Shown here one piece after another: positions 12,576-34,195 of a DNA stretch of 64,000 nt (position 1 is the stretch's first letter; every line of letters starts with the position of its first letter). The stretch is from a virus. The stretch is from the IMG/VR virus record IMGVR_UViG_3300022921_001386, one strand, 5' to 3'. Made by a program: the position numbers and the translations under genes. The notes below the pieces were generated by a model. The model saw only the letters and a program-made list of their open reading frames with translations, searched no databases and was not told where the DNA came from.

Positions 12576-12576
12576 A

Positions 12577-15013: not shown

Positions 15014-16257
15014 GAAAATACCATTTCTAAATCTTTGTAAACAGTTGTACTTCCAAACATAGCAGGCAATAGCTCAGGCTGTCTTGTAATCTCAAACGTA
15101 TCAAATCTATCTAATAATGCATTTGTAATAATTTCTAAAAAATGCTTAACAAGAAAATCACCTGTACAATGATGCGGGCCATATGCAAGTGTTACCGGCA
15201 ACGGTTCGTTATCTCTTTCAAGTCTAAATACTAACGGATCTTTATAATATTTTGGATCTCGATTGGCACCATATGTATATAACAAAATGCGGCCGCCTCC
15301 ATCAAACTTATAACCATGAAATACTGTATCGTCAACAATATCTCGTACGCCGCCCTTTAAAGGTGCTAATCGTAAACTTTCTCTAGCAAATGCAGAAACT
15401 AAAGACCTATCTTCTTTTATACGTTTAACAATATCTGGATATTTACAAAAGTTCATTAAAATGTTCTGATATAAACTTAACGAAAATGTAGGAATAACCA
15501 CTGTCCATAAAGACTGAATAAACATATACGCCATTAGTTTAGGATTATCGTTATATTCAGATTGTTTGTCGTTGAGGTTTTTAGTCATATTAATCATAGT
15601 ATCGTAATCTTTATCATTGTTATGATAATATTCTATTGCTTCGTTAACTATACGAGAGAACATACTATAAAACTCAGTAGTCTCTGATACAGGCTTATCG
15701 TAATCAAAGTCCGGATTAAAGTTTGAAAATACATTTCCAGGACGCATCCACTTATGAAATCCGTCTTTTACATAATCTTCAGTAACATCCAATGCATCCC
15801 ACGGAAACTCAATTGATTGAACTTGGGTATCTGTTACTGTTTTGCCTATGACATCGTATGCTTTAAATGGAACGCCCTTTTTAATCGAGTCAAGATCTTT
15901 ATATAAGTTATCTGTAAAGATTTTTGTAAAATCGCCTGCTCGACGTTTAATCCAATCTAAACTATGTTTTTTAGCAAGGTGGTGATGCGGACCTTCACGA
16001 AGTGTCAACGCATATCCTGCTCTCCAAACACCTCCAAGAGGAGTAGGATCAAATGGTGCTGGAGATGTTTTTGCAAGACTGAATCTATCATTCATTTTAG
16101 ATGCCTCTTTAAGGCGATCCATCGAAAAGATAATCCAATGTTTATATACTGGGTGCCAAAAGAAGCCGCGTTCTTCGTTTTTAAAACAAAATGTTATGTG
16201 TTCGTCCATTTTGTATAAGAAATCAGGATTAACAATTTCAAAATCAATTTTCCTCAT
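15010..16257 (-). CDS. Cytochrome P450
   Basis: ESLR (ExxR), ANRDP..Y.DP..F..ER, AYGPHHCTG heme-thiolate loop; 415 aa. Confidence 0.9.
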   Translation of the reverse strand: MRKIDFEIVNPDFLYKMDEHITFCFKNEERGFFWHPVYKHWIIFSMDRLKEASKMNDRFSLAKTSPAPFDPTPLGGVWRAGYALTLREGPHHHLAKKHSLDWIKRRAGDFTKIFTDNLYKDLDSIKKGVPFKAYDVIGKTVTDTQVQSIEFPWDALDVTEDYVKDGFHKWMRPGNVFSNFNPDFDYDKPVSETTEFYSMFSRIVNEAIEYYHNNDKDYDTMINMTKNLNDKQSEYNDNPKLMAYMFIQSLWTVVIPTFSLSLYQNILMNFCKYPDIVKRIKEDRSLVSAFARESLRLAPLKGGVRDIVDDTVFHGYKFDGGGRILLYTYGANRDPKYYKDPLVFRLERDNEPLPVTLAYGPHHCTGDFLVKHFLEIITNALLDRFDTFEITRQPELLPAMFGSTTVYKDLEMVFS

Positions 16258-17369
16258 TTGATTTTCCTCTTAGGTATTTTACTATCAGCACTACTGACAC
16301 AACTTTCGGTTATACAAGGCATAGCCTTGTCAAACAGTTTAAATCCTGTTTCAATATTGCCAAGAGGCACATCGTGGCAACTATAACTGCGTTTCACACT
16401 GCCATCTGGCTCACGAATGATAATACCTTGATAACCAGCATTACAACTCCAGCCTTTAAACTTGTTAAAGTTGAAAGCATTAAAACGTTCTGCTTGATCC
16501 ATATACCATGCTTTACCGTCTTTGTCTCTAAATTCTACTTGCATATGCCAAGGCACTTTTGCATCTGGTTTATGCATTGCATCAGCAGGTATTTCAAATT
16601 TAGGACTCGGACGACCGCTCCATTTGCGTTTGGTTTCAGTGTATGCACGTTGCGGCATACCGTTGTGTAAACGCTTTAGGTTGTCTGCTGTATACCCATC
16701 TACCACTCGGCTGGCTGTAGGGTCGCTTTGAGGCTTTAGCGTAACGTTTATACCTTGTTCGTGAAAGAACAATGCGTTTTCCCAATCTCTTTCAAACCAG
16801 TCCGGAACCATAACCATATTGATTGTAACTTGAACATCGTGCTCCTGACAGAAGATTAGTTTATCTGCAAAGTCTTGCATCTTCTCAACTGTATTTAAAT
16901 GTTCTGTGTGCAAACTTGCTGTAATACTGGCACGGTGGAATGGCTTAACTGCTTCTACATACTTTTCAAACCACGCCATATTACGACTACAGTTCGATGT
17001 CATGTGTACACTAGTGTAGTTGGTGTTGTCTACGTCATCAGCCAGATGTTGTAAAATGTCCAAGTAGCCAGGATGGAAAGTAGGCTCGCCGCCACTAAGA
17101 CTAAAATGATAACTATTAAATCCGTTTTCACGTGCCTGCCTTTTTATCTCATCTATTGTTTTAAGACATAGTTCTGTGGGTCTGTGGTCTTTACGGTCTG
17201 AACGAGCGTAGGGCCAACAATAGGAGCATTTGTAGTTACAGAATCTACCCAGTAGCCAACTGATAGTAAATATGTCACGATACAACAAAGTGCGCTGACC
17301 AACACTAACAATATCATCAAAGGGTATTTTTGTAAAGTCATAGTTTGACCATTTTAAATCTTCATTCAT
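16254..17369 (-). CDS. Radical SAM enzyme with C-terminal twitch-like Cys cluster
   Basis: CNYKCSYC, SGGEPT, GWSCNAG...SC...C...C. Confidence 0.9.
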   Translation of the reverse strand: MNEDLKWSNYDFTKIPFDDIVSVGQRTLLYRDIFTISWLLGRFCNYKCSYCWPYARSDRKDHRPTELCLKTIDEIKRQARENGFNSYHFSLSGGEPTFHPGYLDILQHLADDVDNTNYTSVHMTSNCSRNMAWFEKYVEAVKPFHRASITASLHTEHLNTVEKMQDFADKLIFCQEHDVQVTINMVMVPDWFERDWENALFFHEQGINVTLKPQSDPTASRVVDGYTADNLKRLHNGMPQRAYTETKRKWSGRPSPKFEIPADAMHKPDAKVPWHMQVEFRDKDGKAWYMDQAERFNAFNFNKFKGWSCNAGYQGIIIREPDGSVKRSYSCHDVPLGNIETGFKLFDKAMPCITESCVSSADSKIPKRKIK

Positions 17370-17374
17370 ATTTT

Positions 17375-17403
17375 ATTATACCATATTATTAGCAATAAGT
17401 CAA
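17375..17403 (-). promoter_or_regulatory. Sigma70-type promoter, leaderless
   Basis: TTGACT-17 bp-TATAAT with TGn extension; ATG only 5 nt after -10, no RBS. Confidence 0.75.
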
Positions 17404-18617
17404 CTAGAACTTTTCGTAAGCTCTTCAACTATATTACGAATATGTGGAAATAATACATCCCAGTTGTATTCAGATCTTTTTAACTTAAAGTAATTAAACT
17501 TTTGCTTAATAGCATCCGGCTCTGCATATTCGATCTTAGTTCCTACTAGTTTTTTCATATTAGTTAGATGTTTAGCATAATATATTCCGTTTTCTTTACA
17601 AAAAGTAATAGCGTCATCAAAGTGAGACGCATAATGTCTAGGTATATATAAGATAGACATCTCTGGTTCCATTGCAATATTATGATTAAATAATGTGTTT
17701 AAATTATAATCTATTATTCCATTTTTTTCATATTCATTACGTAAAAGGTTATAAAAGAAACTAACAAACTCAAATGTTTGTGGCAAACTATAGATATTAA
17801 CAGTTGGAGAGATACGTATTTTAACATTAGGTTCTAACACTAGTTTTTTTAAGTTTGCAACTGCACGATCCCATATTATGCCAGTACGTACCGCTTCGCA
17901 GTGGTTTCCAATTCCATCTACGCTGCAATCAAACGTCCATTTAATATTCCTATCTTCTTGTATTTCTTTTAAGTAACGATTAAATATTTTTTCTTTGGTA
18001 TTTATATTGGTACTTATTACTAAATTTAGTTTATTGTTAGGAACATGTTTTTTAATCTCTTGAATATAATGAAGTGTTTTAGGATTATATGTTGGTTCGC
18101 CTCCTGAAAAGAAAAACCAATAGTTTTCTTGGGTGTATTTTTTTTGTTTAAGATATTCAAATAATGTATACTCTACTGTATTACTCCAGTCTTCATCGCC
18201 ATTATGTATATCTTCGCCTAACTCTTTTGCCCAACTTGTACTATCTTTAGATCCACAGTATATACATTTTAAATCACACGCACTACTTAACACAAACTCA
18301 AATGTTTGTAGATTATCTGACTTATATAATTCAGTTTTTTGTTGATTTGTAAATGTATCTTTCCATTCATTCCAAGTTCTAAATAAGCTATATGGTTCTG
18401 TCTTTATACAACTATTACATGCATTTTTTGGTAGTTCGTTAAGAAATAACATATCTGCTTTTTTAGCAAGATACCCCGGAGTTTCTATTAATCCATATTT
18501 TTTAATATCATGTAGACTTGTAGATTCATCTTCAGTTTTACAACAGTTTTTTATCGAACTGTACGGAAAACGAATATTTATATCAGTAAACATTTTGCTG
18601 CATATATTCTGTGTCAT
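17400..18617 (-). CDS. Radical SAM enzyme with N-terminal SPASM/twitch-like Cys domain
   Basis: C...CC...CNSC then CDLKCIYC, SGGEPT. Confidence 0.9.
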   Translation of the reverse strand: MTQNICSKMFTDINIRFPYSSIKNCCKTEDESTSLHDIKKYGLIETPGYLAKKADMLFLNELPKNACNSCIKTEPYSLFRTWNEWKDTFTNQQKTELYKSDNLQTFEFVLSSACDLKCIYCGSKDSTSWAKELGEDIHNGDEDWSNTVEYTLFEYLKQKKYTQENYWFFFSGGEPTYNPKTLHYIQEIKKHVPNNKLNLVISTNINTKEKIFNRYLKEIQEDRNIKWTFDCSVDGIGNHCEAVRTGIIWDRAVANLKKLVLEPNVKIRISPTVNIYSLPQTFEFVSFFYNLLRNEYEKNGIIDYNLNTLFNHNIAMEPEMSILYIPRHYASHFDDAITFCKENGIYYAKHLTNMKKLVGTKIEYAEPDAIKQKFNYFKLKRSEYNWDVLFPHIRNIVEELTKSSS

Positions 18618-18635
18618 TTAATAAAATTCCAAATG

Positions 18636-19895
18636 TTAGATGGTTTCATTACCATTTCCTTTATCAAAATCGTATACTAGTTTTTTAAGAGAGCCGCCTT
18701 TGTTGTCAACTTCTTGCATTTCCATTAGCTTTGGCTCAATATTAGGAGCATGATAACTAAAAATTGATGTTGCAACACTGTCCACTCTTGCTTTAGGAAC
18801 ACATAGTCCGCAACCGCAATGTGTCTTTGGGCATCTTATTAACGGTATAGTATTTGTTACAAACTGTTCTTCTAATTTATTACAATACTTATCAAAATCT
18901 TTAACAGATGATATTGGACCTATCTTGCCTTCTAAGTTAACTTGACAAGTTTGATGATGCCATATCTTATCAATCTCCTGATGTATGTACAAGAAATACC
19001 AGTTTATCATACAGTTCCATCCTTGAAAGTTATTATTTTCTACAAACGTACTATTAGAAATTTCGCCATTATCAAATCCTAAATCTAAGTTGCGGCCGCC
19101 GCAACACGGTCTGCCTATCTTTTGGCCAACTTCTTTTTTCTTCTCTGGCTGGTTAGTATTTGGTGTACTAACTTTTGCAGGAGGATTACTAGCATAATAA
19201 GCAGGCTCTAGTTCGCCATTTTTCTTTGCTTTCCAATAGTCCTTGAGCCAATCTAGTTGACTTTCTGTATAAGTATGAACTGTCTTATCTTTAAGACCTT
19301 GTTTGATATCGCCTTGATCCCCTATAACCCGCGGTGTATAATCCACTCCGTTTTTATCACACCATTGTGCCAAGTATATACATTCATTAAAGTAATCTGC
19401 ATCTTCGTGAAACATAATGTTTATTTTAAAATTATAGTTAGCATCTAACATAGTTTGTAGATTTTCTCTAACCTGTTTTTTCTGTACTTCTGTACCTTCG
19501 CAATGATAACTAACTGTAGTAAACTCCGTACTACGCATAACAACTTCAAGTTTACGTTTACTATAAAACCCATTGGTAGTTAGTGTTCGTTTCCAATGCG
19601 GATATGTTTCTTGTAAATATTCTAAAAACTTAAAAAACTCTGGATTTACAGTAGGTTCACCGCCAGTAAAACTTGCAGCAACTCTAAATCTCTCATTGCG
19701 TTTAGAATTATAAATTTCGCTATATCTTTCTAAACTATCAGCAGTTTTTACTAGTTCATCAAAACTTGCTAGATCACTCCAGTTATTTTTTCGATGTGGT
19801 GGACAATAAGTACAAGCAAATGTACATCTACGACCTAGATCCCATATAACCATAAGTTGTTTTTCGGTCTTATCGTCTATACTACATAATCCCAT
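18636..19895 (-). CDS. Radical SAM enzyme with Cys-rich C-terminus (paralog of 25119-26273)
   Basis: WDLGRRCTFACTYC, TGGEPT, GRPCCG, HHQTCQ, CPKTHCGCGLC. Confidence 0.9.
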   Translation of the reverse strand: MGLCSIDDKTEKQLMVIWDLGRRCTFACTYCPPHRKNNWSDLASFDELVKTADSLERYSEIYNSKRNERFRVAASFTGGEPTVNPEFFKFLEYLQETYPHWKRTLTTNGFYSKRKLEVVMRSTEFTTVSYHCEGTEVQKKQVRENLQTMLDANYNFKINIMFHEDADYFNECIYLAQWCDKNGVDYTPRVIGDQGDIKQGLKDKTVHTYTESQLDWLKDYWKAKKNGELEPAYYASNPPAKVSTPNTNQPEKKKEVGQKIGRPCCGGRNLDLGFDNGEISNSTFVENNNFQGWNCMINWYFLYIHQEIDKIWHHQTCQVNLEGKIGPISSVKDFDKYCNKLEEQFVTNTIPLIRCPKTHCGCGLCVPKARVDSVATSIFSYHAPNIEPKLMEMQEVDNKGGSLKKLVYDFDKGNGNETI

Positions 19896-20772
19896 CTATT
19901 TTTCCTATTTTTTTCTTTGCTTCATTTATAGCCCATGTTTTTTCTAAACACCAAAAACAATCATTGCATTCAGGTAGCTCGTCGCCAGGGCGATAATACT
20001 TGTACGAATCTTCGTATCGGTTATCGACTAGTAGATTTTTTATACCAGATTCAACTGATCTAATATGCATTATATTTCCAAAGGCTTCACAACTACGAGT
20101 AACTTCGAGTAAGTCTTCTATATTATACAAAAAATAATCTGCAATAATATCGTCTTTTGTATGATATATAAATGGTTGTACATTTAAAGGATATGAACTA
20201 TTATTTTGTTGTCTGTAAGATAATCTATATCCTTGTAGATCTATTTCTGACATATTTCTATCAGGCGAAACATCACCAACTGTACTTAATAATTCAGGAT
20301 TTCGAGTAGTAGAACAATATAATGCATCTAAATTATTTGTATATCCAATCCACAATGCATAACTAGAGTTTTCTATTTTGTCTCCTGATTTTAATGTGTC
20401 GTTAATAGGAATAATATCTCCAATTATTCCATATTCTATTTCTGTAGGAATATAATTTTCATGTTCTATAAACTTAATAGTAGGAAACATAGATTTTAAC
20501 TTTTTAATCACTTCTAAACGCACATGTTTTTGCCAAGGTTTTATTTGCCATCCTCTTACATGACTTATTGTATGTATTTCTATCTTTAAATTATGTTTTA
20601 TTATATAGTTGCATATATTATAGCATAAAATAGCACTATCGGCGCCACCGGAAATATTAATACCAATCTTTGTCCATGCATCATTAAAAGGAATCGGAAC
20701 TCCATTTGCTGTTTCAAAATAATTAAACTCGTTAGATTCTTTATAAATTTGTTTTATATTGTGATTTAACAT
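19882..20772 (-). CDS. QueC-like PP-loop enzyme (copy 2)
   Basis: ISGGADS; TRSCE...CNDCFWC. Confidence 0.8.
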   Translation of the reverse strand: MLNHNIKQIYKESNEFNYFETANGVPIPFNDAWTKIGINISGGADSAILCYNICNYIIKHNLKIEIHTISHVRGWQIKPWQKHVRLEVIKKLKSMFPTIKFIEHENYIPTEIEYGIIGDIIPINDTLKSGDKIENSSYALWIGYTNNLDALYCSTTRNPELLSTVGDVSPDRNMSEIDLQGYRLSYRQQNNSSYPLNVQPFIYHTKDDIIADYFLYNIEDLLEVTRSCEAFGNIMHIRSVESGIKNLLVDNRYEDSYKYYRPGDELPECNDCFWCLEKTWAINEAKKKIGKIDGIM

Positions 20773-22110
20773 TTATTGTCTTTCTATGTTGCAGTCATTT
20801 GCAAGTTCTTTTAAATGAGGGAATGTTGTAAAAAAATCCCATGTAGGATATGTTTTTTGGTATTGCTTGTTTACATAGTTAAGTTTACTAAAGAAAAATT
20901 CTGCTTGTTCAGGTGTTAAACTATCTGGCATATCACTAGTAACGCTTGCAAAATAACCATCTTCATAGTATACATTATGATAGTCTGATGCTAACTGTTT
21001 AAATATTTCATGTGCTTTTTTTATCTTTTCTATTGCGTATTTCTTTGGCAAATATGCAGTTTGCATCCATTCTGGATCTTGTAATGCATTAAATGCTATT
21101 TCTACTCTATGACGCTTGCCTTCTACATAGTTACTACGGATAGTATCATTTATATATTGTGCCATTTGATCTATATAGGGTAAATTTAAACCTGTAACAA
21201 CTGTAAAACTTCTAACATTATCGACTACACTGTCTGGTTTAATCCAGTTTCCAAAGTTTTTTTGTATTTGATCAAAATCAGCACCATGTCGAACCATTAC
21301 CTGATCGTGAGCACCATCTTGGCTTAACATTATTTTTGTTTGCCAACCAGCTGCTTTATATTTTTTAAACATGTTATAAAAACGTTCATTAAGTTTATCT
21401 TTACTTGTACCGTTTGTTGTTATTTCTATAATTAGTGTCTTGCCTGCTGCAATAGATTCTCTGCCGGCTTCAATAAACTCATCTGCATGATCGTACATTT
21501 CGTCATGTAGTGTAGGTTCGCCGCCTAAATATGCAATATTCATCATATGTCGGCATTCTCTAATAGACTTCTTTGCAAATTCTATAACAGCACTGGTCCA
21601 TTGTTGTTTATGTTCGCCCTTATAATATCTACTATCCGCAAGATAGTTTTCATATCCTCTTCCGTCTGACCCATTGGTGTCATAATCCTTGTACCATATT
21701 TTTCTTAGTGTATTACTATTTCCTACCCAACACATGAAGCAGCCTAGATTGCAAGTTGAATTCATCCATAGTTCTATGCGGCTCGGAAGTGCTACATCTG
21801 TTGGTATTGTACGATTATTAAATAGTCCATTATAATTTGGACCATGATGCTGCCGCATACTCAAAATACCGCGCTCTTCTTTTTTCCAACATGTTGTACA
21901 ATCAGCATGTTTTATATTATCATACAAACTTTGTTTGCGCTCTATTAGTTTTGGAAACTTGGTAAAATATTCATTTCCTAACTCAATAAATGCATCTTCA
22001 TCAAATTGATATGGCCATGAATCACAACAAGCCGAAAACTCACCAACTTCAGGTTGAAACTTATAAACAGTGTAACTCATTGGACAATGAAGTTGTGTAA
22101 AATCAGTCAT
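20773..22110 (-). CDS. Radical SAM enzyme with N-terminal SPASM/twitch-like domain
   Basis: C...CC...CTTC; CNLGCFMC; LGGEPT. Confidence 0.9.
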   Translation of the reverse strand: MTDFTQLHCPMSYTVYKFQPEVGEFSACCDSWPYQFDEDAFIELGNEYFTKFPKLIERKQSLYDNIKHADCTTCWKKEERGILSMRQHHGPNYNGLFNNRTIPTDVALPSRIELWMNSTCNLGCFMCWVGNSNTLRKIWYKDYDTNGSDGRGYENYLADSRYYKGEHKQQWTSAVIEFAKKSIRECRHMMNIAYLGGEPTLHDEMYDHADEFIEAGRESIAAGKTLIIEITTNGTSKDKLNERFYNMFKKYKAAGWQTKIMLSQDGAHDQVMVRHGADFDQIQKNFGNWIKPDSVVDNVRSFTVVTGLNLPYIDQMAQYINDTIRSNYVEGKRHRVEIAFNALQDPEWMQTAYLPKKYAIEKIKKAHEIFKQLASDYHNVYYEDGYFASVTSDMPDSLTPEQAEFFFSKLNYVNKQYQKTYPTWDFFTTFPHLKELANDCNIERQ

Positions 22111-23443
22111 TGGTAATATCCTCTTCTATATACTTTTTTAATCCTGGTACTACATTACTTATAGATTCGTTTCTTATCTTGTCTAAAGTATTGGTATAGT
22201 GTACAAACTCTTGCCAATATTCATTGTAATAACTTTTACTATTCATATAGCTGCAAATTCCGTTTTTAATACCATTTGCTGCATACAAATATTTTTTATC
22301 AAACTTTTGTTCTTCAATCCAGTTTACAAAGTTGTCAAACTTTGTAGATAAATGATGCTTGTATTCATCAGGAAGAACTTGTATATTTAAGTGAGGCGGA
22401 TTGTGAGCTACGTGATATGTTATTATAGGTTTAATAGAACTATTATTAATTTTTTCAAAGTTACTATGTGTTAGTTTCCATTTCATAAAATCAATCATAT
22501 GTTCAACATTATATGCTGTTACTGTAAATGCTATCCAGGCTTTTATATTAGAGGGTAACTTGTCTATTGTATTTAAATTTTTTAATATTTTATTCCATTT
22601 TGCAGGATATCGTTGATATTCTAAAACTTTTTCCATGCCGTCGACACTAACTCCTAATCGTATTTCTTTAAATTTTGTCCATAAGCCAACAACCCTTGGT
22701 GGTAATGTAGTTCCGTTTGTATTATATTCAATTAATATGTTTTTAGCGTACCCATAATCTATACATTTTTGTAAGAAATCGTAATGCCTTTCAATAAGCA
22801 TAGGTTCGCCGCCTGCAAAATATACATGTTCTATATTAGGAATATTTTTTTCAAGCTGTTTCCAAAACATTTCACTATTTGGCCAATCAAAATCTTTAGA
22901 TATAAGTTTTCCATTTACATTATGTATTTCAATTTCGCCGCTGGTATCGTTAAACGTATGCTTGCCTGTTAGCTTAATCCAATCGTCAAACCATGCACTC
23001 GAATCTGATGGGCCGCACATTCTGCATTTTAAGTTGCAAAAATTGCCAAATCTTAAATCATAGTATTTTATAGGAGACTTTTCGGTATCTATACTACCAT
23101 CTTTATTTGTAGTTGTAAGTGCATCAATAATAGAAAAATCCCACTGCAATCTTTCGTACTGACGTCTACTAGTTAATCCGTTTTCTTCTTCTTGGCGGCA
23201 TCTGTCACATTCTTCGTTCCACTTACTACTTAACATATTTTTACGTATATCTTTCATTAGCTGACCGTTGCGTGCCTCGCTCAAATCATCTATGCCAACA
23301 TTATATGCGGCGCCTGTTTCTTTTCTTACAACACCTTTATTTTTAGTTACATTAGCTTGACAACAAACACGTACATCGCCATTACTACGTGCTGCCTGAA
23401 ATATCCACGGAATAGGACAAAAAGTTTTTTCACCTTTAATCAT
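22103..23443 (-). CDS. Radical SAM enzyme with N-terminal SPASM/twitch-like domain
   Basis: FCPIPW...VCC...CDRC; CNLKCRMC; AGGEP; start moved to ATG overlapping upstream stop (TAATG). Confidence 0.9.
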   Translation of the reverse strand: MIKGEKTFCPIPWIFQAARSNGDVRVCCQANVTKNKGVVRKETGAAYNVGIDDLSEARNGQLMKDIRKNMLSSKWNEECDRCRQEEENGLTSRRQYERLQWDFSIIDALTTTNKDGSIDTEKSPIKYYDLRFGNFCNLKCRMCGPSDSSAWFDDWIKLTGKHTFNDTSGEIEIHNVNGKLISKDFDWPNSEMFWKQLEKNIPNIEHVYFAGGEPMLIERHYDFLQKCIDYGYAKNILIEYNTNGTTLPPRVVGLWTKFKEIRLGVSVDGMEKVLEYQRYPAKWNKILKNLNTIDKLPSNIKAWIAFTVTAYNVEHMIDFMKWKLTHSNFEKINNSSIKPIITYHVAHNPPHLNIQVLPDEYKHHLSTKFDNFVNWIEEQKFDKKYLYAANGIKNGICSYMNSKSYYNEYWQEFVHYTNTLDKIRNESISNVVPGLKKYIEEDITND

Positions 23444-24579: not shown

Positions 24580-24580
24580 A

Positions 24581-25135: not shown

Positions 25136-26273
25136 CTAATACTCCTATGTCTATGTGATTATTTAATACGTTTAATAGTTTGTCTGTTTGCATACTCTTA
25201 GGAGCACATAATCCACATCCACATGTTTGCTTTGGACAAACAATAGTAGGCATTGTTCCAGTTTGCATTTGTTTTCTCAAATCATCTACTAGTTTTTTAC
25301 CTTCACTTATTTTTCCTATTGCGCCGCGTGTGCCATTAAACTTTGCTTGACATGTTTGATGATGAAATACTTGGTCAGTTTGTTGTTCTAAATGCAAGAA
25401 GAACCAGTTAACACTGCATTTCCACCCTTTGAACTCTCTAAAATCTACAAATGTACTTTTACGTTTTTCTGTGCCGCTGTGTAACATCATGTCTCTACTA
25501 CCACAACAAGGACGTCCTATACTACTTCCTAGTTTTTTTGCATTTTTTACAACATCACCTACTGCACTACTAGCATATAGTGCATCATTTTTTTGCCTCC
25601 AATAGTTTTTCATCCACGCTAGTTGTTCTTCATTGTACTGATGAGCAAAGCTAGGTTTGCTATCTGGCTCTTCGCCAATAACTCGCGGAACAAAATCAAC
25701 ACCATGCTGTTGTAAAAACTCGCATAGCTCTTTGCACTCATCAAAATATTCTGCGTGAAACATAACATTTACACTAACTGTACACTCGTACATATCACCT
25801 TGATAATGCAACTGTAATATTCTATCTTTTACTTGCTGTTTGAGTTTGCCATCGCTTTCACTGTGATAGCTGATAGTAGCATGACAGAAGTTTTCCATTA
25901 TTGCTTGGCCCATTTTTTCACTAAATGCGCCATTGCTTGTAAGAGCAAAATCAGCTATCCACTTGTCTTGATATTTTGCTTCGTATTCTTCTTTTAGATA
26001 TTTTGCAAAAGGAATAAAATGTGGATTAACTGTGGGCTCGCCGCCTGTAAATCCTACATTTGCTTCTTTGAAGTTGCGATGCTCCATGTATACATCAATG
26101 TATTCAAACAGAAAATCTACGTTGGCTTTTAGTTCATCTAACGTAGCATGTTTACTAAAGTTGTCGTGCCTGTGGATTGGGCAATAACTACAATCATAGT
26201 TGCACCGTCTTCCAAGATCCCATGTTACTTGAAACAACTTTCCAGTTAACAAATCAATAGTATCAAAACTCAT
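25119..26273 (-). CDS. Radical SAM enzyme with Cys-rich C-terminus (paralog of 18636-19895)
   Basis: WDLGRRCNYDCSYC, TGGEPT, GRPCCG, HHQTCQ, CPKQTCGCGLC. Confidence 0.9.
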   Translation of the reverse strand: MSFDTIDLLTGKLFQVTWDLGRRCNYDCSYCPIHRHDNFSKHATLDELKANVDFLFEYIDVYMEHRNFKEANVGFTGGEPTVNPHFIPFAKYLKEEYEAKYQDKWIADFALTSNGAFSEKMGQAIMENFCHATISYHSESDGKLKQQVKDRILQLHYQGDMYECTVSVNVMFHAEYFDECKELCEFLQQHGVDFVPRVIGEEPDSKPSFAHQYNEEQLAWMKNYWRQKNDALYASSAVGDVVKNAKKLGSSIGRPCCGSRDMMLHSGTEKRKSTFVDFREFKGWKCSVNWFFLHLEQQTDQVFHHQTCQAKFNGTRGAIGKISEGKKLVDDLRKQMQTGTMPTIVCPKQTCGCGLCAPKSMQTDKLLNVLNNHIDIGVLDDHNG

Positions 26274-27096
26274 TTATTTCCTCAATGACAGATTTTACTT
26301 GTTTGTCTGCCCAATCTCTTTCTTCACACCACCAACACTGTTTGCATTCTGGTATATACATTCCTGCATTGTAATCTCTAAAATGCCCGCAAGACTCTTT
26401 TATATTTTCCATATGATTTATATCGCCTTCACAACTACGTGTTGTGTTGTACAAATCTAATATATTATGTATGTGGTATTGTGCTACAATCCAATCTTTT
26501 TTTACAAATCTAAAAGGATGGACAAATGTTGATTTTACTTTTCCGCTGTAAAACCATAAATCAGTTAGTTGTCCATCTTCGGCATCTTTGTCTCTATTGG
26601 TCATACGGTCTTCACGCAAGTCATCTGGATTCTTACTTGTAGCATTATATACTGCATCCAAGTTGTATTCCCATGCTGCAAACTTGTTGTAACTTCCTAC
26701 TATAATCTGATCGCCACTCTTGCCGTTGATACTTGCTCCTATTACACCGTGTTCTATTTCAGGCGGAATATATGTTGTGTATCTATTTTCAATAATATAA
26801 GGAAACATGTCTTTTAGTTTGTCAAATACTTGTAAACTAATATAGCCTTGCCAAGGTCTTGTTTCCCAACAACGTTGGTATGTAATAACATCTACTTTTG
26901 TAGTTAGATTGTTGCGTTGTATGATTGTACACAATAAATATGTTAGCAATGCACTATCGGCACCACCAGAAAGATTAATGCCAATACGCTGCCATTTTTC
27001 ATCAAACGGAATAGTTAACTTACTAAAAGTTGTAAGCAGTATATCATTAGAAATATTTTTATATAACGAGTTGTTTGTATCAAACATTTCGTACAA
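26263..27096 (-). CDS. QueC-like PP-loop enzyme (copy 3)
   Basis: LSGGADS; TRSCE...CKQCWWC. Confidence 0.8.
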   Translation of the reverse strand: MYEMFDTNNSLYKNISNDILLTTFSKLTIPFDEKWQRIGINLSGGADSALLTYLLCTIIQRNNLTTKVDVITYQRCWETRPWQGYISLQVFDKLKDMFPYIIENRYTTYIPPEIEHGVIGASINGKSGDQIIVGSYNKFAAWEYNLDAVYNATSKNPDDLREDRMTNRDKDAEDGQLTDLWFYSGKVKSTFVHPFRFVKKDWIVAQYHIHNILDLYNTTRSCEGDINHMENIKESCGHFRDYNAGMYIPECKQCWWCEERDWADKQVKSVIEEINEF

Positions 27097-28414
27097 CTTC
27101 TCCGTTTACAAACTTGTAGTTTTCAATATGTTCATTGAAATCTTGTTTCCATATTTTATCTGTTTTTTCGATATACTTCATAAAATCAGTCCAATCAGAT
27201 TTTTTTGCATCGTAGTTTAGAATATATTTCCTTATGTATTCAAGCCCGGCAACTGCACTGGTGATATCTTGCCACATGTCATAGGGCTTTTCTATTCCAA
27301 CAGTAAAATGACTTTTTAACATCCTAGACGAATCTACGTTCTCTCTTCTTTTTTTGTCTACACCAAATATAGCATTACGTGTTTCTTCGATATCATTTAA
27401 TATAGAATTTCTATGCTTCAACAACATCACACTTGGATTTAGATAATCAGGTGTATACACTATACTAACATTAATATAGTTGATGTCAAGTTCTAAAAAA
27501 CTAAGAAATGAATCTTTTATTTCCATAAGCTGATATGTTCCTGTAGTATAGACTACATTAATGTCGCAATGATTATTGTCAACTTGTTTAAAACGATTTA
27601 TATTTTCTTTTAGCTTTTGCCAATCACCTTGTCTAAAATATGGATATAGTCTAGGACCTGCATCTAAACTTATTTGAATGTTTACATCACCAAATAAGTT
27701 TAATAATCTGCTCAACTCAACTGCATCAAAGTCTGCATTGAAGTTGCTATGAAAAATGATTTTCATATTTTCAGCGTTGGGATGATCGCCAAGTTTAGCT
27801 AATGTAGGAAAGAACTGTTTTTGGTACAACACTTCGCCGCCGGCAAAATCTACTCTTTCAAGGTTTGGAAAGTTGGTGTTAAGATCTTCAACTATTTCTA
27901 AAGCACGAGCTGTGCTAATACTTATAGTGTAATCATCATCTGCATCCTGTCGATGCATTTGTCCAGTTAGCTGTATTAGATTGTGTTTATAATCTTCGTC
28001 GTCAGGTGTGTATTTTTTTAACTTGGACATCCAACCGCTGCTGAATACTTGACTACAATGCAAACAACTCATATTACAACTATGACTGAAACGCATTTCG
28101 ATTGTTTTCAATCCTTCAAATGCTGTTTCACCAGTTTCGTGATTATAATATTGTAAATCAACACCTTGTTCTTGACGCATACTCTTGCCTGCATTTGCTT
28201 GTTCAACATGCTCGCACATATTACAACCTTTGCACCAAGTTCCGCTCATTAGTTTTTTACGATGATTTTTAAAGTTTTCATTATTGAAAAACTTGCTTGG
28301 CAGGTATTCCTCATCTAGCATTTGAAACTTTTCGTGTTGTGTAGGACAACTGGTTACAAATCCATTTTTAAAGTTGATTCCGCTTATAGCATAATAGCAA
28401 TCTAAACTAGCCAA
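27080..28414 (-). CDS. Radical SAM enzyme with N-terminal Cys domain
   Basis: C...SC...CNMC; CNMSCLHC; AGGE. Confidence 0.9.
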   Translation of the reverse strand: MASLDCYYAISGINFKNGFVTSCPTQHEKFQMLDEEYLPSKFFNNENFKNHRKKLMSGTWCKGCNMCEHVEQANAGKSMRQEQGVDLQYYNHETGETAFEGLKTIEMRFSHSCNMSCLHCSQVFSSGWMSKLKKYTPDDEDYKHNLIQLTGQMHRQDADDDYTISISTARALEIVEDLNTNFPNLERVDFAGGEVLYQKQFFPTLAKLGDHPNAENMKIIFHSNFNADFDAVELSRLLNLFGDVNIQISLDAGPRLYPYFRQGDWQKLKENINRFKQVDNNHCDINVVYTTGTYQLMEIKDSFLSFLELDINYINVSIVYTPDYLNPSVMLLKHRNSILNDIEETRNAIFGVDKKRRENVDSSRMLKSHFTVGIEKPYDMWQDITSAVAGLEYIRKYILNYDAKKSDWTDFMKYIEKTDKIWKQDFNEHIENYKFVNGEVVRNV

Positions 28415-29282
28415 TGATTTTCTCCCATAGACTTTGCTTTGATATATCTAACAAAAATCCTTGTGCATTATTTTTACCCCATTCTTTTTCTTGACAGAAA
28501 AAACAGGTTCCGCATTCTGGAGGATATTTTGTTTTATAATCTTTTTCTATTTCAACTAAACTAATTTCGCAACTTCGTGTTAACTTTAATAAATCATCTA
28601 GTCTATAGTTAATGTACTGTGCCATTGTATAGTTTTTTCTAAGAAGTCCAAATGGATTAATGCAGGACCCTGTAATAACCCAATCCCAGTTATCCTTAAC
28701 AACTGTTTCATCTCGAAACTCAGGAGCCTGATCATTGTCTATTGGGGGATTCATAGTTGTTCCGCTATATACCCATTCGTAGTTATAAGATTTTATTAAA
28801 TATTCCTGATAACTATGTGTTATTAACACATCGCATTTTGCCATTGAAGGTAATGTCAAGTTGGGTAGATTTAGATTTTTTAAAGGCACAGTTTCAAATT
28901 CGTGTGGCAAGAATCCCCAATGCTGCATACCAATGATATTTGGAAACTGTTTTTTTAGATATCCGAATGCATCTTCTGCCATTGGTTTTAGCCAAGGCTT
29001 TTGTTCCCAAAAACGTACCATTGTATATACATCTATTTTTGTTTTGAGGTTTTCTCTTTTAATAAGTGTACACAACATATAAAGTAATAAACTACTGTCG
29101 GCGCCGCCGCTAAATGCTACTAATATTTTTTTTGCATGGTTATCAAGATGTATAGGCAGACCGTTTATCCTGTATACATTAGGATATCTGCGAGGGTATT
29201 GCGTTTTTTCATACTGCTCAATAAAATCTTGTTTTTTATAATGCAGTTCTAAGTAATCTAAATACTTAAAATCATCCATCAA
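28407..29282 (-). CDS. QueC-like PP-loop enzyme (copy 4)
   Basis: FSGGADS; TRSCE...CGTCFFC. Confidence 0.8.
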   Translation of the reverse strand: MMDDFKYLDYLELHYKKQDFIEQYEKTQYPRRYPNVYRINGLPIHLDNHAKKILVAFSGGADSSLLLYMLCTLIKRENLKTKIDVYTMVRFWEQKPWLKPMAEDAFGYLKKQFPNIIGMQHWGFLPHEFETVPLKNLNLPNLTLPSMAKCDVLITHSYQEYLIKSYNYEWVYSGTTMNPPIDNDQAPEFRDETVVKDNWDWVITGSCINPFGLLRKNYTMAQYINYRLDDLLKLTRSCEISLVEIEKDYKTKYPPECGTCFFCQEKEWGKNNAQGFLLDISKQSLWEKIIG

Positions 29283-30669
29283 AAATATCTTTCATCTCAG
29301 GGAATGTTTTAGCAAATGTAATACCACGTTGTTTGTCGCATAGGTTTATAAACTCTTGCATTTCCGGCAAGCGTCTGCTCCAGTCCTCTGATTCCATAAA
29401 CTGTAGCATACCTTTAAGACGTTTTATACCATAGGGCGCTGCATCAAACATTGCTTTAGTTACTTTGCCCTTGTGCCAGCTAGGTATGCCAAGTTCCCAG
29501 TTAGCTTCCCACCAAGGATAAAACTCTTCGTACTTTTTGCGTACTTCTGCTTTGAACCATTCTGGCAATACTTTAACATTTAGGTGCGGTGGATGGTATA
29601 CAAAGTGATAGTTTACTCCGCCTGCACCGAATGGCCACATATTAATCTTTTTAAATTTTTGTTCTAGTTTCCAACGAATAAAATCTGGTATGTAATATAT
29701 GTTTAATGCTTGTACTGCACATGCTACAGTGATTTCTACATTGTTACTTGTTTCGTTGTCAAGTATATGAAATACTTCTTCTTGACGTTTCCAGTTACTT
29801 GGATAACGAATATAGTCATTCATCTCGTGTATACTATCTATTGAGTAATGAAAACGAACTACTTTAAACTCTTTCCATAGGTCAAACAAATCATCACGCC
29901 ATTCAACGCCATTTGAGTTGTAGCGTAGTTCTAGATCTTTTGCATAGCCCATTTTAATAGCATGTTCAAGTATTTCGTAATGTTCTTCAATAATAAGACT
30001 TTCGCCGCCGGCAAAATAAATCTGTTGCATACTACCCATTTGATCATAGAACTGTTGCCAAAATACAGGATTTTGTTTGTGCCAGTTGTAGCTACTACCA
30101 TTGGTGCTACCTTTGTCTTGCCACTGCATTGTCTCTTTGAGACTTTCGTTTTTTACTTCAGGAAAGATTGATTTATAATCTTTAATCCAGCCACTACTAT
30201 CATGCGGACTACACATAACACAAGCAAGCTGACATTTGGTGCCAAAGCGTAAATCAATGTATGCTAAGTTAGGCGGTACTTCGCCATCTTCTGTAGTATC
30301 AGCAATCAGTTTGTCAACATCAGTACGCTGACTCCAATATGCTGTTTCCCACATACGTTTGCTATTATGTCCTGCTGCTTCTTCTCTGTAGCACTTTAAA
30401 CAACTTGGAGGCTTTTCGCCATTCATCATCTGCTTGCGTACATTTTTCATATACTTGCTGTTCCACGCAGTTTGAAAATCTGTTACATTTAGGTTGTTTG
30501 GTTTGCCGTCATCTGTTTTAAGAATGCCAACTTGGCCGCCATGCTCTTTATCATTAGTAGCACCTACACTACTAGCGTTTGCTGTACAGCATACTCTCAT
30601 ACTGCCATCTGGTCTTGTACTTAGGTGTACCCACGGAAGAATACAAAAGGTGTCACTTACTTTGCTCAT
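29272..30669 (-). CDS. Radical SAM enzyme with N-terminal SPASM/twitch-like domain
   Basis: FCILPW...VCC...CLKC; CQLACVMC; AGGE. Confidence 0.9.
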   Translation of the reverse strand: MSKVSDTFCILPWVHLSTRPDGSMRVCCTANASSVGATNDKEHGGQVGILKTDDGKPNNLNVTDFQTAWNSKYMKNVRKQMMNGEKPPSCLKCYREEAAGHNSKRMWETAYWSQRTDVDKLIADTTEDGEVPPNLAYIDLRFGTKCQLACVMCSPHDSSGWIKDYKSIFPEVKNESLKETMQWQDKGSTNGSSYNWHKQNPVFWQQFYDQMGSMQQIYFAGGESLIIEEHYEILEHAIKMGYAKDLELRYNSNGVEWRDDLFDLWKEFKVVRFHYSIDSIHEMNDYIRYPSNWKRQEEVFHILDNETSNNVEITVACAVQALNIYYIPDFIRWKLEQKFKKINMWPFGAGGVNYHFVYHPPHLNVKVLPEWFKAEVRKKYEEFYPWWEANWELGIPSWHKGKVTKAMFDAAPYGIKRLKGMLQFMESEDWSRRLPEMQEFINLCDKQRGITFAKTFPEMKDIFDG

Positions 30670-31730
30670 ACTGTACTTATGCCTTTATCTGCGTAGTTTA
30701 TTTCATTATGATATGCTTTATTTTTTGCACATGTTCTAATACATCTACTGAGATGTAATGGATGATTTGGTTGCCAACTTGCTGTTAATAAATCTTTATA
30801 CCAAGGGTGTTGCATTATTTCTTCTTTGCTGTGTAACAGTAAACTATTCCAGCCAGGTTCAAATCTGTTTAGTTTCTGCATTATATCTTCTCTGTTTTTA
30901 AATGCACTATCCCATAGAAAACAACACGGCCACATAGTTTGATCACTTGCTATAAATATTTCACCTTCATGGATATACTTACATATAATACTGTCAACTA
31001 CTTCTTTAGTTTTTTCGGCATCAGCTTTATGAGATTTATACTCAGTAATAAACTTATCCAAGTCTTTCATTATATCTTTTTTACTATGCTCTTTACTGCC
31101 TGTGGTTGTAATAACTTTTTGTTCCGTTTGTTTTTTAGTTTTTATTTTTGCAACCCAATCGTGATAACTATTACGCATTCCAGTACGTGTAGCAAAATCA
31201 AATCCTAATACTGCGGCATGTGCTCTAGCAGTAACTAGTTCTTGCTCATTGTGATCAAAAACTATGTAGATCCATGTAGCATGACGTTGTGGTGCTGCTT
31301 CAGAAAATGCTATAATGTTGCGTTCTACAACACTCCATTTGGTGTTTACCCTATATATATGATTGGTGTTTTTGTGTCCGTCAATACAAAAATGTATATG
31401 CAACTTTCCTATATAAGTTGATGCAAGATCGCCTAGTTGTTTCCACCATGCTGCGGTATTATATCCACCGTTGGTACTATACTCACAATATGCACCTTGG
31501 CTAAGAAGGTATTCTGTCATAGCCAAACAATCAGGATTAACAATAGGATCTCCAAGAACTCCGCAAAACTTGAACTCTACTCCATTGTAATCTGCAGGAG
31601 GAAAAATACGTTGCAAATCTTGCAACGTAAATGCGTTTATTTGCAACAATTCTTTGTTGAGTGTTCTTGCACACCCTGGACAAGCTGCATTACAATCGCT
31701 GGTTATTTCTAGTTCGACTTTTTTAATCAT
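30666..31730 (-). CDS. Radical SAM enzyme with C-terminal twitch domain (GDP type)
   Basis: CNAACPGC, CGVLGDP, C...PCCF...CIRTC; start moved to ATGA overlap. Confidence 0.9.
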   Translation of the reverse strand: MIKKVELEITSDCNAACPGCARTLNKELLQINAFTLQDLQRIFPPADYNGVEFKFCGVLGDPIVNPDCLAMTEYLLSQGAYCEYSTNGGYNTAAWWKQLGDLASTYIGKLHIHFCIDGHKNTNHIYRVNTKWSVVERNIIAFSEAAPQRHATWIYIVFDHNEQELVTARAHAAVLGFDFATRTGMRNSYHDWVAKIKTKKQTEQKVITTTGSKEHSKKDIMKDLDKFITEYKSHKADAEKTKEVVDSIICKYIHEGEIFIASDQTMWPCCFLWDSAFKNREDIMQKLNRFEPGWNSLLLHSKEEIMQHPWYKDLLTASWQPNHPLHLSRCIRTCAKNKAYHNEINYADKGISTV

Positions 31731-32902
31731 ATTAAATCCACTAACTCTGGAAAGGTTTCTACAAAGTCGGTGTTCCTTTTTTGATCCCACATTTCTATTG
31801 TTTTTTTAAAGTTACGACGAAGGTTAGGATTATCATCTCTAATGTGTAGATAATCAAACAATCGATGATTTTTTTGTAGTTGTTGTAGTTTGTTGTTTGC
31901 AACGTTTATTTGTTGATCATTTAGTAGTACTGGAGTATATGCAGTTGGACCGTGCCACGGTAATAACATCCAGTTGTTCATATCAATGTCATTGTCAATA
32001 TACCATTGTTCTAATGTGTCTATGGTCAGTGCATTAAACAAGCTATAACTTGTTTGTACATATACAGTTGAAACTTCTTTTATCCGTTGATAGTTTTTTA
32101 GCCATTTTTCTTCTACCAACGGATATCTAATATAGGTACCACGTTTGCCAAAATGATCGTGACTGAATGTAATGTCAAAGTTTGTGAACTTTGATAGATA
32201 ATCGTTTACAATATCTTTGCCTTTGTATGTACTCACACTACCATTTGTATGCGATGTAATGTGTATGTCAAATATTTTATTATCAATCAACACATCAAAT
32301 AGTTTATAATACTGCTCTTGCATAAATGGCTCGCCGCCGTTACAGTGTATTGATTGTATTGTATCTGCATGTTGTAAAATATATTCAATAATAGGATCTA
32401 TATTGTTATTCCAATCACCGGATATATTAGTATGACGTATATCTAAATCTCTTTGTATTTCTATATCGGTATAATTTTTTGCCCATGTACTACTGAGTTC
32501 AGATTCGCATCCTAAACATGCAAAGTTACAGTTATTGCTTACAAGTAAATCAACAAAAATAGGTTTTTGATCTGTTAGGTTAGCACTCATTACTTGCTTA
32601 CTATAATGCATTGCCTTGTATGCATTTTCATTTGAAAACATTTGTACATTGTGTATGCTACCAGTTTGATTATAAAAACTACTACACGACTGACAGTTAT
32701 TTTTAGGATAGTTTCCTTGTAAAAAATCCTGGCGAGTAAGTTTTGCAGACTTGCTGTTGTACACTTCTTGTATAGAATTGTAGTTGTAGTTGCCAAAACT
32801 ATTAGTAGCTGCACAACAAGGTTTTACAACACCATCTCTTCCAAAATATATTTGGTTAAATGGTGCATAACAAAATGTTTTGTCTTTCCAATGCGGCGTC
32901 AT
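31727..32902 (-). CDS. Radical SAM enzyme with N-terminal SPASM/twitch-like domain
   Basis: FCYAPF...PCC...CQSC; CNFACLGC; NGGEP. Confidence 0.9.
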   Translation of the reverse strand: MTPHWKDKTFCYAPFNQIYFGRDGVVKPCCAATNSFGNYNYNSIQEVYNSKSAKLTRQDFLQGNYPKNNCQSCSSFYNQTGSIHNVQMFSNENAYKAMHYSKQVMSANLTDQKPIFVDLLVSNNCNFACLGCESELSSTWAKNYTDIEIQRDLDIRHTNISGDWNNNIDPIIEYILQHADTIQSIHCNGGEPFMQEQYYKLFDVLIDNKIFDIHITSHTNGSVSTYKGKDIVNDYLSKFTNFDITFSHDHFGKRGTYIRYPLVEEKWLKNYQRIKEVSTVYVQTSYSLFNALTIDTLEQWYIDNDIDMNNWMLLPWHGPTAYTPVLLNDQQINVANNKLQQLQKNHRLFDYLHIRDDNPNLRRNFKKTIEMWDQKRNTDFVETFPELVDLI

Positions 32903-33978
32903 TTAAACTGCTCTGCAAATGGATCAAACTCTTTGCCGCATTTCATACTGCATACTTTTAGTTTTCCATCGGCTATACTTTGTTTGTCCCAACTGTCTTG
33001 TATATTATCAAAAATACCTGTATCAAACACTGCACGTAGCCCGTGTGTTTTAGCACTGATTGCATCCTTGCCGCCTGCTGCATCAATAAAATCCCATACT
33101 TGTTCTTGCTTAGGATCATTGTGCCACCATTTGTACATACGACCAGCTGTCCAACAACATGGCATAGCAAGCCCTTCAGCAGTAATAAACAAGTTTCCTT
33201 CATCTTTTACTTTACAATGTATAGCAGCACGATCATAATAAGTGTCCATGCTGCCATGCTTTTCTTTTACTTTGTCGTATGCTTCGAGTGCCTTGTTTAA
33301 ATATTTGGCATCTGGTTTTTTAAGTTTAGCAGTTTGTTCACCTTTACGGTTTACTGCCTGATGCGATTCTTTCTTTTCGCTTTGTGCTGTTACAAATCTG
33401 CCTGTTTTCTTTTTGATGAATCTTTCACACCCCCAGGCATTAGCAAGTGCTTCTGCTTCTTCGACCTGATGTTGATTGTGTTCAAAGATTAGGAAGTCCC
33501 AACGTGCTCTGCCACCGGCATCTATAAATGCTCTCATGTTGCGTTCTACATTATCCCAAACAACACCCTGTCTATAAAGATGATTAGTATCACGCAATCC
33601 ATCTACACTGAATATAACTGCACCCATACGTCCAAATACACTTGCAAGTTCTTTCCACCATTCTACACTTTTGGCTCCTGCGTTAGTATTCATACTCAAC
33701 CACATCTTATCATTATGCTCTCTGAAGTAACGGAATATTTCCAATGTGTCTCGTGCAACAATAGGATCGCCTAAGTTGCCGCACATGTACATTGTGTTTA
33801 GCTGTGCAATAAACTCCGGTTCAAATATACGTTTACAATCATCTAGTGTAAGTTCACTCAAATCGATATGCGGATTTAATGCTCCGCCATTTTGATTGCG
33901 GTCGCACATTGGACAACTGGCTTGACAGTTTTGTGTGTTTTCCAAGTGTATTGTTTTTATGTCTTCGTACTTATACAT
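32899..33978 (-). CDS. Radical SAM enzyme with C-terminal twitch domain (GDP type; paralog of 30666-31730)
   Basis: CQASCPMC, CGNLGDP, C...PCCW...CSMKC. Confidence 0.9.
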   Translation of the reverse strand: MYKYEDIKTIHLENTQNCQASCPMCDRNQNGGALNPHIDLSELTLDDCKRIFEPEFIAQLNTMYMCGNLGDPIVARDTLEIFRYFREHNDKMWLSMNTNAGAKSVEWWKELASVFGRMGAVIFSVDGLRDTNHLYRQGVVWDNVERNMRAFIDAGGRARWDFLIFEHNQHQVEEAEALANAWGCERFIKKKTGRFVTAQSEKKESHQAVNRKGEQTAKLKKPDAKYLNKALEAYDKVKEKHGSMDTYYDRAAIHCKVKDEGNLFITAEGLAMPCCWTAGRMYKWWHNDPKQEQVWDFIDAAGGKDAISAKTHGLRAVFDTGIFDNIQDSWDKQSIADGKLKVCSMKCGKEFDPFAEQFK

Positions 33979-34195
33979 CGTGTATCAACTTTACATCTTT
34001 ACCAGGGCCAACCTTACTGGGCAAGTCGCCATACTGTTCTATATACCATTCAATAACAGCCTTGTACCAGTTTTGACTATTATGATGTGCTTTTTTATTA
34101 AACTGCCAAATATTATTGTTGGTTGCTTGTATTGTACTAAGAGCTCTTGCACTTTCTTTTTGCAGTTCTCTTACACTTAGTTCACTTATATCCAA
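33971..34195 (-). CDS. Small hypothetical protein
   Basis: 74 aa, overlaps both neighbours in the operon. Confidence 0.65.
   Translation of the reverse strand: MDISELSVRELQKESARALSTIQATNNNIWQFNKKAHHNSQNWYKAVIEWYIEQYGDLPSKVGPGKDVKLIHDV

Follow-up and report, generated by a model that had tools for sequence, protein, structure and literature searches.

A variable island of radical SAM genes shared by giant marine phages and Bdellovibrionota as a candidate sugar-tailoring locus

Why does a phage encode fourteen radical S-adenosylmethionine (SAM) enzymes beside its tail-fibre genes? The question is raised by a 64,000-nucleotide stretch (the window) of IMG/VR record IMGVR_UViG_3300022921_001386, which comes from an uncultured giant marine phage and is recognizable as phage DNA by its structural genes (Table 1). 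Twelve of these genes form an array between positions 16254 and 33978 (genes are named here by their lower coordinate), and we regard this array, with a probability of roughly 0.5, as the radical SAM part of a hypervariable island that tailors sugars or glycans. The evidence centres on a conserved core, in which a transferase of GT-A fold and a methyltransferase-like protein accompany three radical SAM proteins of three different types (32899, 29272 and 16254), and which is common to at least 80 related phage contigs and to Bdellovibrionota.

A scan for open reading frames (ORFs) of at least 100 aa with the CX3CX2C motif returned exactly 14, all intact, all on the minus strand and all with the motif early in the core domain, confirming the number, the starts and the four architectures given in the original prediction. 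Its description of the 12 genes as near-contiguous holds in part, as they are interleaved with three QueC-like PP-loop genes and one short gene resembling short-chain dehydrogenases/reductases (SDRs). Ten of the 14 reach the gathering score of Pfam Radical_SAM (PF04055; 29.5 bits), while 20773 (29.3 bits), 41513 (24.5), 31727 (22.3) and 30666 (17.1) fall below it and are identified by CX3CX2C and by matches to NCBIfam radical SAM models. The array lies within a block of 27 co-directional genes on the minus strand, from 37240 down to 8567, with gaps that are all at most 30 nt and stop and start codons that mostly overlap. None of the 14 proteins belongs to the housekeeping families MoaA, NrdG, QueE or anSME, tight clustering with which had been named as one way to refute the prediction: scores were 5-10 times below the cut-offs (best score versus equivalog cut-off in bits: MoaA 41.8/284, NrdG 24/131, QueE 21.5/260, anSME 30.9/349), and profile searches of the PDB with three radical SAM classes gave generic radical SAM core matches only. 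A heavy demand for Fe-S clusters and SAM during infection, as originally proposed, is plausible.

The largest group comprises eight proteins with an N-terminal Cys domain, all of which match the NCBIfam family NF033640 (N_Twi_rSAM) end to end, sharing an N-terminal four-Cys twitch and a CX3CX2C core; six score above the curated cut-off of 170 bits, whereas 17400 and 20773 score below it. The four N-terminal Cys (C9, C27, C90 and C93 in 29272) are invariant in all eight paralogs and in 36 family members, and are placed 50-60 residues before the SAM cluster in each of the eight. Pfam SPASM matches above cut-off at the N-terminus of 29272 (25.0 bits) and 31727 (32.9 bits), and in an AlphaFold2 model of 29272 (mean predicted local distance difference test score, pLDDT, 89.9; predicted template modelling score 0.89) a beta-hairpin spans the first to the second Cys and helices surround the CxxC pair. 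Moreover, the N-terminal domain profile aligns with the C-terminal twitch of the class C proteins described below (hhalign E 2.4e-5, probability 76%), and its C-x17-C...C-x2-C spacing resembles that of the twitch ligands of BtrN. The SPASM matches, the invariant Cys, the modelled hairpin and the profile alignment thus argue that the permutation is real and that the N-terminal domain, as had been supposed, is of the twitch/SPASM type, a predicted auxiliary [4Fe-4S] site. The permuted architecture is not new, however, as it is already curated as NF033640, a family with 7175 clusters (50% identity) matching at E<=1e-30. A literature search found no characterised NF033640 member and no paper on radical SAM enzymes with an N-terminal twitch/SPASM domain. 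About 40 of the best 150 family representatives are 750-1400 aa long and contain two or three full N_Twi units in tandem, which suggests that neighbouring N_Twi copies work together.

The remaining radical SAM proteins fall into three further classes. In class B (16254, 18636 and 25119) the C-terminal Cys clusters noted originally are present, whereas the W-x-LGR-x-C motif that had been grouped with them lies N-terminally in the alignment, immediately before the SAM-cluster motif; the best named matches of 16254, all below cut-off, are to the N_Twi core region, prokaryotic viperin and MoaA. In class C (30666 and 32899) LGDP replaces GGEP and a C-terminal C-x18-CC...C-x3-C pattern is shared, which bears out the earlier description of a "GDP-type" pair with C-terminal twitch-like Cys. 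The putative B12-type protein 10500 matches 13 NCBIfam models of B12 radical SAM proteins (E 1e-17 to 7e-4, all below cut-off) and, weakly, the B12-binding domain PF02310 (24.3 bits versus a cut-off of 32.1).

Did the phage itself build up the N_Twi set, as the original prediction held? The pairwise identity of the eight paralogs is 19-33% and their relatives outside the window are closer (nearest cluster representatives at 46-85% identity for six paralogs, about 30% for 23443 and 36% for 27080). A tree of 118 sequences has the eight scattered over the family, with no two of them as sisters, and constraining them to the single clade that the prediction implies cost 1669 log-likelihood units (approximately unbiased test run after the tree had been seen, p-AU 2.8e-46). 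The low mutual identity, the scattered tree and the rejected clade lead us to reject recent duplication in place, and comparable N_Twi arrays of up to at least 11 copies in Bdellovibrionota chromosomes likewise speak against an expansion by the phage.

Comparison of 80 related IMG/VR loci separates a constant frame from a variable filling. The gene order is glycosyltransferase-like gene, 34182 ortholog, 32899-type, 29272-type, 16254/25119-type and hydroxylase, with other genes before and after the 29272-type gene; the radical SAM, QueC-like and SDR genes between these frame genes vary in number, class and order, such that a locus holds 1-13 radical SAM genes per 21 kb. The 29272-type gene is present in all 80 loci, and marine metagenomes contain over 2000 homologs of 29272 (79-90% identity among the 120 matches listed); 32899 orthologs of at least 60% identity occur in 69 of the 80 loci, and 16254 is 83-92% identical in phages. 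Whole related records contain 6-21 radical SAM matches each and reach 251 kb at an estimated completeness of 71%, implying a genome of about 350 kb.

The nearest relative (record G001) illustrates how such variation arises. From 23443 to the fibre genes the proteins share 87-100% identity, with a single gene under 92%, but to the left of 23443 the gene content differs and the mosaic boundary is sharp: 17400, 20773, the P450 gene and the AMP-binding gene 12577 are missing, 18636 and 22103 have matches of 44-46% and the halogenase match is distant (27%), although 16254 is kept at 95% despite this turnover. With near-identity on the right and other genes on the left, the left-side difference is a cassette exchange between near-identical phages.

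Radical SAM genes of this kind also occur in cultured phages: Vibrio phage K566 (OZ196521.1, 255 kb) has four clustered N_Twi-like genes (7971-14713), KVP40-type phages have one N_Twi-like gene match each, and a 35% identical ortholog of 41513 is found in Ralstonia phage RsoM2USA. In addition, one of five related phage records, 251 kb long, encodes a carrier of Fe-S clusters of the A type (G155:C1:98206-98508; PF01521, 56.6 bits); no such gene was found in the other four, which are partial records.

The same core resides in bacterial chromosomes. Orthologs of 29272 (55-62% identity) lie in Bdellovibrionota chromosomes, on contigs of up to 3 Mb, next to orthologs of 32899 (42-48%), 16254 (56-68%), 34182 and 35209/42886 and to variable extra copies, and these islands are flanked by housekeeping genes (PheT, GcvP, AcrB and M16 peptidase). 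N_Twi genes were detected in 31 of 151 sampled Bdellovibrionota genomes, with up to 11 scored copies each, and in none of 14 control genomes. Among the matches are some Tara "MAG" (metagenome-assembled genome) contigs with fibre genes of phages, and these contigs are probably phage DNA that was binned wrongly. The island of the isolate Bdellovibrio sp. HCB2-146 has class B and class C radical SAM genes and, in some 36 kb, six N_Twi genes interleaved with sugar genes encoding six family 2 glycosyltransferases (GT2), two UDP-glucose/GDP-mannose dehydrogenases, two NAD epimerase/dehydratases and one DegT aminotransferase. A literature search on Bdellovibrio radical SAM enzymes and glycosyltransferases found nothing useful. 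A Parcubacteria MAG (G004), a candidate phyla radiation (CPR) bacterium with a genome of 1.7 Mb, has seven N_Twi genes within 10 kb (C2:835416-845702) on a 1.27-Mb contig.

At the edge of the HCB2-146 island lies a gene for a 1355-aa Peptidase_S74 fibre protein, and fibre-like Bdellovibrio proteins with this endosialidase chaperone domain are encoded at island edges in two loci in all (L120, 17254-21321; L121, 17308-19863). As a constant bacterial neighbour the S74 fibre was rejected, as it accounts for 2 of the 11 large neighbouring ORFs tested and most of the others are housekeeping genes.

What, then, do the non-radical members of the core do? The model of 42886 (pLDDT 90.6) has nearly exclusively GT-A enzymes among its top 50 Foldseek matches, including RmlT, SunS, TarP and A64R, which glycosylates the PBCV-1 capsid; VIA-align gives Z 10.1 for B4GALNT1 (root-mean-square deviation 3.1, 141 residues) and Z 8.7-8.9 for SunS/ThuS, and the D65-G-D67 motif is invariant in 19 homologs. 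The phage protein has no Pfam match, whereas a 516-aa Bdellovibrionales homolog matches Pfam GT2 above cut-off. The protein 35209 has a part resembling 42886 (33% identity to the 42886 ortholog over 242 residues) and a weak GT2-like match at residues 330-408. For 34182, whose C-terminal domain aligns with phage and Bdellovibrionota homologs, neither Pfam nor PDB sequence searches gave a match, and Atlas offers a lead to Methyltransf_31/PCMT clusters. Two related phage records also have NAD epimerase/dehydratase genes within their radical SAM islands.

Because the core sits inside sugar-chain loci of Bdellovibrio-type bacteria, a sugar decoration is most likely what is edited. The analysis shows directly the genes with their motifs and families, the fold, the conservation, the turnover of cassettes and the bacterial neighbourhood, whereas we infer the sugar substrate, the chemistry and the acceptor (virion fibres or the envelope of the infected cell) alike. 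The core proteins (35209, 42886, 34182, 32899, 29272 and 16254) would make or alter a single unusual sugar unit and then transfer it. In each radical SAM enzyme, SAM and the [4Fe-4S] cluster of the CX3CX2C motif would serve to remove a hydrogen atom from the substrate, with the four-Cys twitch cluster as a possible site of electron transfer or substrate anchoring, roles that twitch clusters have in BtrN, MoaA and anSME. The variable cassettes (N_Twi, class B and C, SDR, methyltransferase, hydroxylase and ligase/halogenase/P450 genes, along with QueC-like proteins acting as ATP-dependent, carboxylate-activating enzymes) might then add strain-specific edits, and they are swapped between phages much as in O-antigen loci. 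Structural comparison of 29272 with solved proteins scores the sugar-nucleotide enzymes BlsE (Z 10.5) and DesII (Z 10.4) best, although tied with peptide maturases, and gives Z 10.0 for a viperin-like protein and Z 9.9 for MoaA; profile searches also bring up BlsE with the alignments of N_Twi and class C, and viperin with those of N_Twi and class B. A more far-reaching version, which we hold only tentatively and think rather doubtful, is that of an ancient, undescribed glycan-diversification system of giant phages, predatory Bdellovibrionota and possibly CPR episymbionts, in which a fixed radical SAM trio makes an unusual sugar that N-terminal-twitch cassettes rewrite by new radical carbohydrate chemistry, giving strain-specific coats on attachment structures.

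Several observations weigh against a sugar-tailoring role. The assignment of 42886 as a putative GT-A glycosyltransferase is by fold and motif, and nucleotidyltransferases that share this fold match it at Z 8.8-9.1, so that its transferase activity is putative. No classical GT2 (PF00535) was found in the related phage records at E<=1e-5. The detailed sugar context is that of one isolate, HCB2-146; homologs of its GT2 genes occur in about 22 of 79 loci. The peptide maturases CteB (Z 10.4), SkfB (Z 10.3), SuiB and anSME match 29272 at Z 10.0-10.4; with these and the sugar enzymes tied between Z 9.9 and 10.5, the fold is uninformative about the substrate. There is no known substrate for NF033640 or for the two other core radical SAM families, the left arm with its P450, halogenase and adenylating enzyme resembles peptide or natural-product tailoring, and a conserved 74-aa ORF of the phage core could be a peptide substrate.

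One rival is a maturation system akin to that of ribosomally synthesised and post-translationally modified peptides (RiPPs), in which the radical SAM enzymes would change the side chains of a peptide or of the neighbouring tail-fibre proteins, for example by cross-linking or epimerisation, and the GT-A protein would be a peptide glycosyltransferase like SunS or ThuS. SPASM/twitch enzymes are mostly peptide maturases, CteB and SkfB are the top Foldseek matches of 29272, sub-threshold NCBIfam matches point to PapB, HxsB/HxsC, SkfB and CcpM, SunS and ThuS are among the GT-A matches of 42886, and hydroxylase, halogenase and P450 genes are at hand; fibre genes adjoin the phage island and a Peptidase_S74 fibre adjoins two Bdellovibrio loci, but in only 2 of the 11 large neighbouring ORFs checked. 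The 74-aa ORF recurs with 66-96% identity at a constant position in 70 loci, every one of them phage or phage-like, but it has no Cys-rich or repeat core and no Bdellovibrionota homolog by hidden Markov model search, although these bacteria keep the radical SAM core; its absence there rules it out as a universal substrate, and as a precursor peptide it is conceivable but hardly convincing. Furthermore, Pfam and NCBIfam scans gave no match to a RiPP recognition element (RRE) or PqqD-like domain, the phage-bacteria identity of the 16254-type proteins is more in keeping with an unchanging small-molecule substrate than with a peptide that co-evolves, and the bacterial context is one of nucleotide-sugar enzymes. 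We therefore consider peptide maturation unlikely.

The QueC-like genes evoke another possibility, namely that radical SAM and QueC-like pairs mimic QueE-QueC, with modified (deaza)purines or other nucleotides as products that would enter phage DNA or act in signalling. Each of the three array copies lies directly downstream of an N_Twi gene, the four proteins (including 8567), though divergent, all have S-G-G-[A/L]-D-S and C...C-x2-C-x2-C, the Cys4 pattern of QueC, and weak QueE- and viperin-type matches exist. By sequence, however, the four PP-loop proteins are QueC-like and not QueC, as the score of 8567 against the QueC equivalog TIGR00364 (23.7 bits) is far below the cut-off of 150.3 and 19882, 26263 and 28407 match TilS/LarE-type PP-loop starts only; the QueE score above is as remote. 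QueC-like genes are also optional cassettes, absent from many related loci though present in some Bdellovibrionota islands, the bacterial islands sit among glycosyltransferase and sugar genes, and the phage island lies in the tail-fibre region, with no tRNA-guanine transglycosylase (TGT)/DpdA, glycosylase or DNA-binding gene in the window scans, all of which makes nucleotide hypermodification improbable. A diffusible small molecule for host manipulation or exclusion of competitors, on a scaffold built by the radical SAM enzymes, would suit the adenylate-forming enzymes, two halogenases, P450, B12 radical SAM protein and methyltransferase of the window, but is a long shot, because these genes are the least conserved (absent from the nearest relative and most related loci), no nonribosomal peptide synthetase, polyketide synthase, carrier-protein or exporter match was seen in the window scans, and what is conserved is the glycosyltransferase, the methyltransferase-like protein and the radical SAM proteins.

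Sugar tailoring remains the reading that we prefer. Other genes of the window are listed in Table 1. The SDR-like protein 24581 is conserved in phage and Bdellovibrionota islands. The Asp/Arg beta-hydroxylase-like cupin type of 9941 forms the downstream island end in many relatives and is found in Bdellovibrionota loci, and a second such gene on the plus strand (2696-3250) brackets the left arm together with it. The genes between island and fibres have no PHROGs or Pfam match. Homologs (27-46%) of the unannotated genes 44352-48494 and of 42886 adjoin the radical SAM core of a Bdellovibrionales MAG contig, next to pheT (L145, 14293-18704), and on account of this neighbourhood 44352-48494 may be part of the same system as the radical SAM genes. 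An FG-GAP protein of 3060 aa is also encoded in the window.

Table 1. Coordinates of the features discussed, in window positions. NF033640, Pfam and other scores are given in bits.
Position	Strand	Feature	Remarks
3309-4991		Mtd_N tail protein	
8567-9265	-	QueC-like PP-loop protein, fourth copy	Pfam QueC 34.3, C-terminal part
9267-9944	-	SAM methyltransferase-like	Methyltransf_12 28.7, just below cut-off
9941-10519	-	Asp/Arg beta-hydroxylase-like cupin	
10500-12575	-	Putative B12-type radical SAM	Radical_SAM 55.7
12577-13344	-	AMP-binding (adenylate-forming) domain protein	
13310-14497	-	Flavin halogenase-like, variable left arm	Trp_halogenase 108.6
15010-16257	-	Cytochrome P450-like, variable left arm	Absent from nearest relative
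16254-17369	-	Class B radical SAM	4 invariant C-terminal Cys; core gene, most conserved
17400-18617	-	Divergent N_Twi-type radical SAM	NF033640 138.4, full length, below cut-off; no ortholog in nearest relative
18636-19895	-	Class B radical SAM	39% identity to 25119
19882-20772	-	QueC-like PP-loop ATPase	
20773-22110	-	Divergent N_Twi-type radical SAM	NF033640 154.4, full length, below cut-off; no ortholog in nearest relative
22103-23485	-	N_Twi radical SAM, mosaic part	NF033640 379.4; 44% to best copy in nearest relative
23443-24615	-	N_Twi radical SAM	NF033640 238.2; last gene of the 87-100% stretch shared with nearest relative
24581-25135	-	Short SDR-like, 184 aa	Weak adh_short and NCBIfam SDR matches
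25119-26273	-	Class B radical SAM	WDLGRRC motif and C-terminal Cys cluster
26263-27096	-	QueC-like PP-loop ATPase	
27080-28414	-	N_Twi radical SAM	NF033640 193.4
28407-29282	-	QueC-like PP-loop ATPase	SGGADS, C-terminal Cys4 pattern
29272-30669	-	N_Twi radical SAM	NF033640 420.7, best family match; core gene
30666-31790	-	Class C radical SAM	32% identity to paralog 32899
31727-32902	-	N_Twi radical SAM	NF033640 242.5; Pfam SPASM at residues 11-73
32899-33978	-	Class C radical SAM	LGDP, C-terminal twitch-like Cys; core gene
33971-34195	-	74-aa ORF, unannotated	Overlaps ends of 34182 and 32899
34182-35225	-	"x347", methyltransferase-like (lead only)	C-terminal ~200 aa conserved; core gene
35209-36882	-	557-aa protein with 42886-like part	Upstream end of conserved core
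41513-42886	-	N_Twi radical SAM, outlying copy	NF033640 299
42886-43815	-	Putative glycosyltransferase, GT-A fold	Directly upstream of N_Twi gene 41513
48514-52011		Tail-fibre PHROGs	
52012-53994		Collar/gp10_C fibre protein	

NF033640 is a very large family for which we found no characterised member, and the presence of the conserved core in a cultured Bdellovibrio isolate and of smaller clusters in cultured Vibrio phages makes its chemistry testable. If the product is a glycan of the surface or virion, the turnover of cassettes would be a phage counterpart of O-antigen variation, relevant to how an abundant lineage of marine phages recognises its hosts, and would hold the prospect of new radical reactions on sugars.

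Among known enzymes, BlsE, DesII, BtrN, MoaA and viperin have the partial TIM-barrel radical SAM core in common with the array proteins, but their auxiliary domain is C-terminal whereas that of the N_Twi proteins is N-terminal, and the window proteins score far below the family cut-offs, with fold matches tied with those of peptide maturases. Among known loci, O-antigen and capsule clusters are likewise co-directional blocks of glycosyltransferase and sugar-modifying genes with cassette-like strain variation, and the Bdellovibrio counterpart has the matching content (GT2s, UDP-sugar dehydrogenases, epimerases and an aminotransferase), although the window yielded no recognizable flippase, polymerase or initiating transferase. 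To our knowledge, none of the glycan loci described so far encodes 7-20 radical SAM enzymes. The closest parallels come from marine T4-like phages, whose host recognition clusters are, as here, variable islands surrounded by tail-fibre genes that contain glycosyltransferase genes as well as radical SAM cassettes: a T4-like marine viral genome was described with 12 radical SAM genes and also genes for Fe-S assembly (Nishimura 2017, PMC5332604), and a hypervariable host-recognition cluster of pelagimyophages combines radical SAM cassettes with glycosyltransferases (Zaragoza-Solas 2020, PMC7029224). Both studies mention the radical SAM genes in passing, without family assignment, core/cassette analysis or a bacterial counterpart. 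Megablast of the tail region against cultured phages gave no match. The present lineage may differ from the pelagimyophages, as its structural genes distantly match the jumbo phages Atu_ph07, RsoM2USA and Xoo-sp13 and not pelagimyophages.

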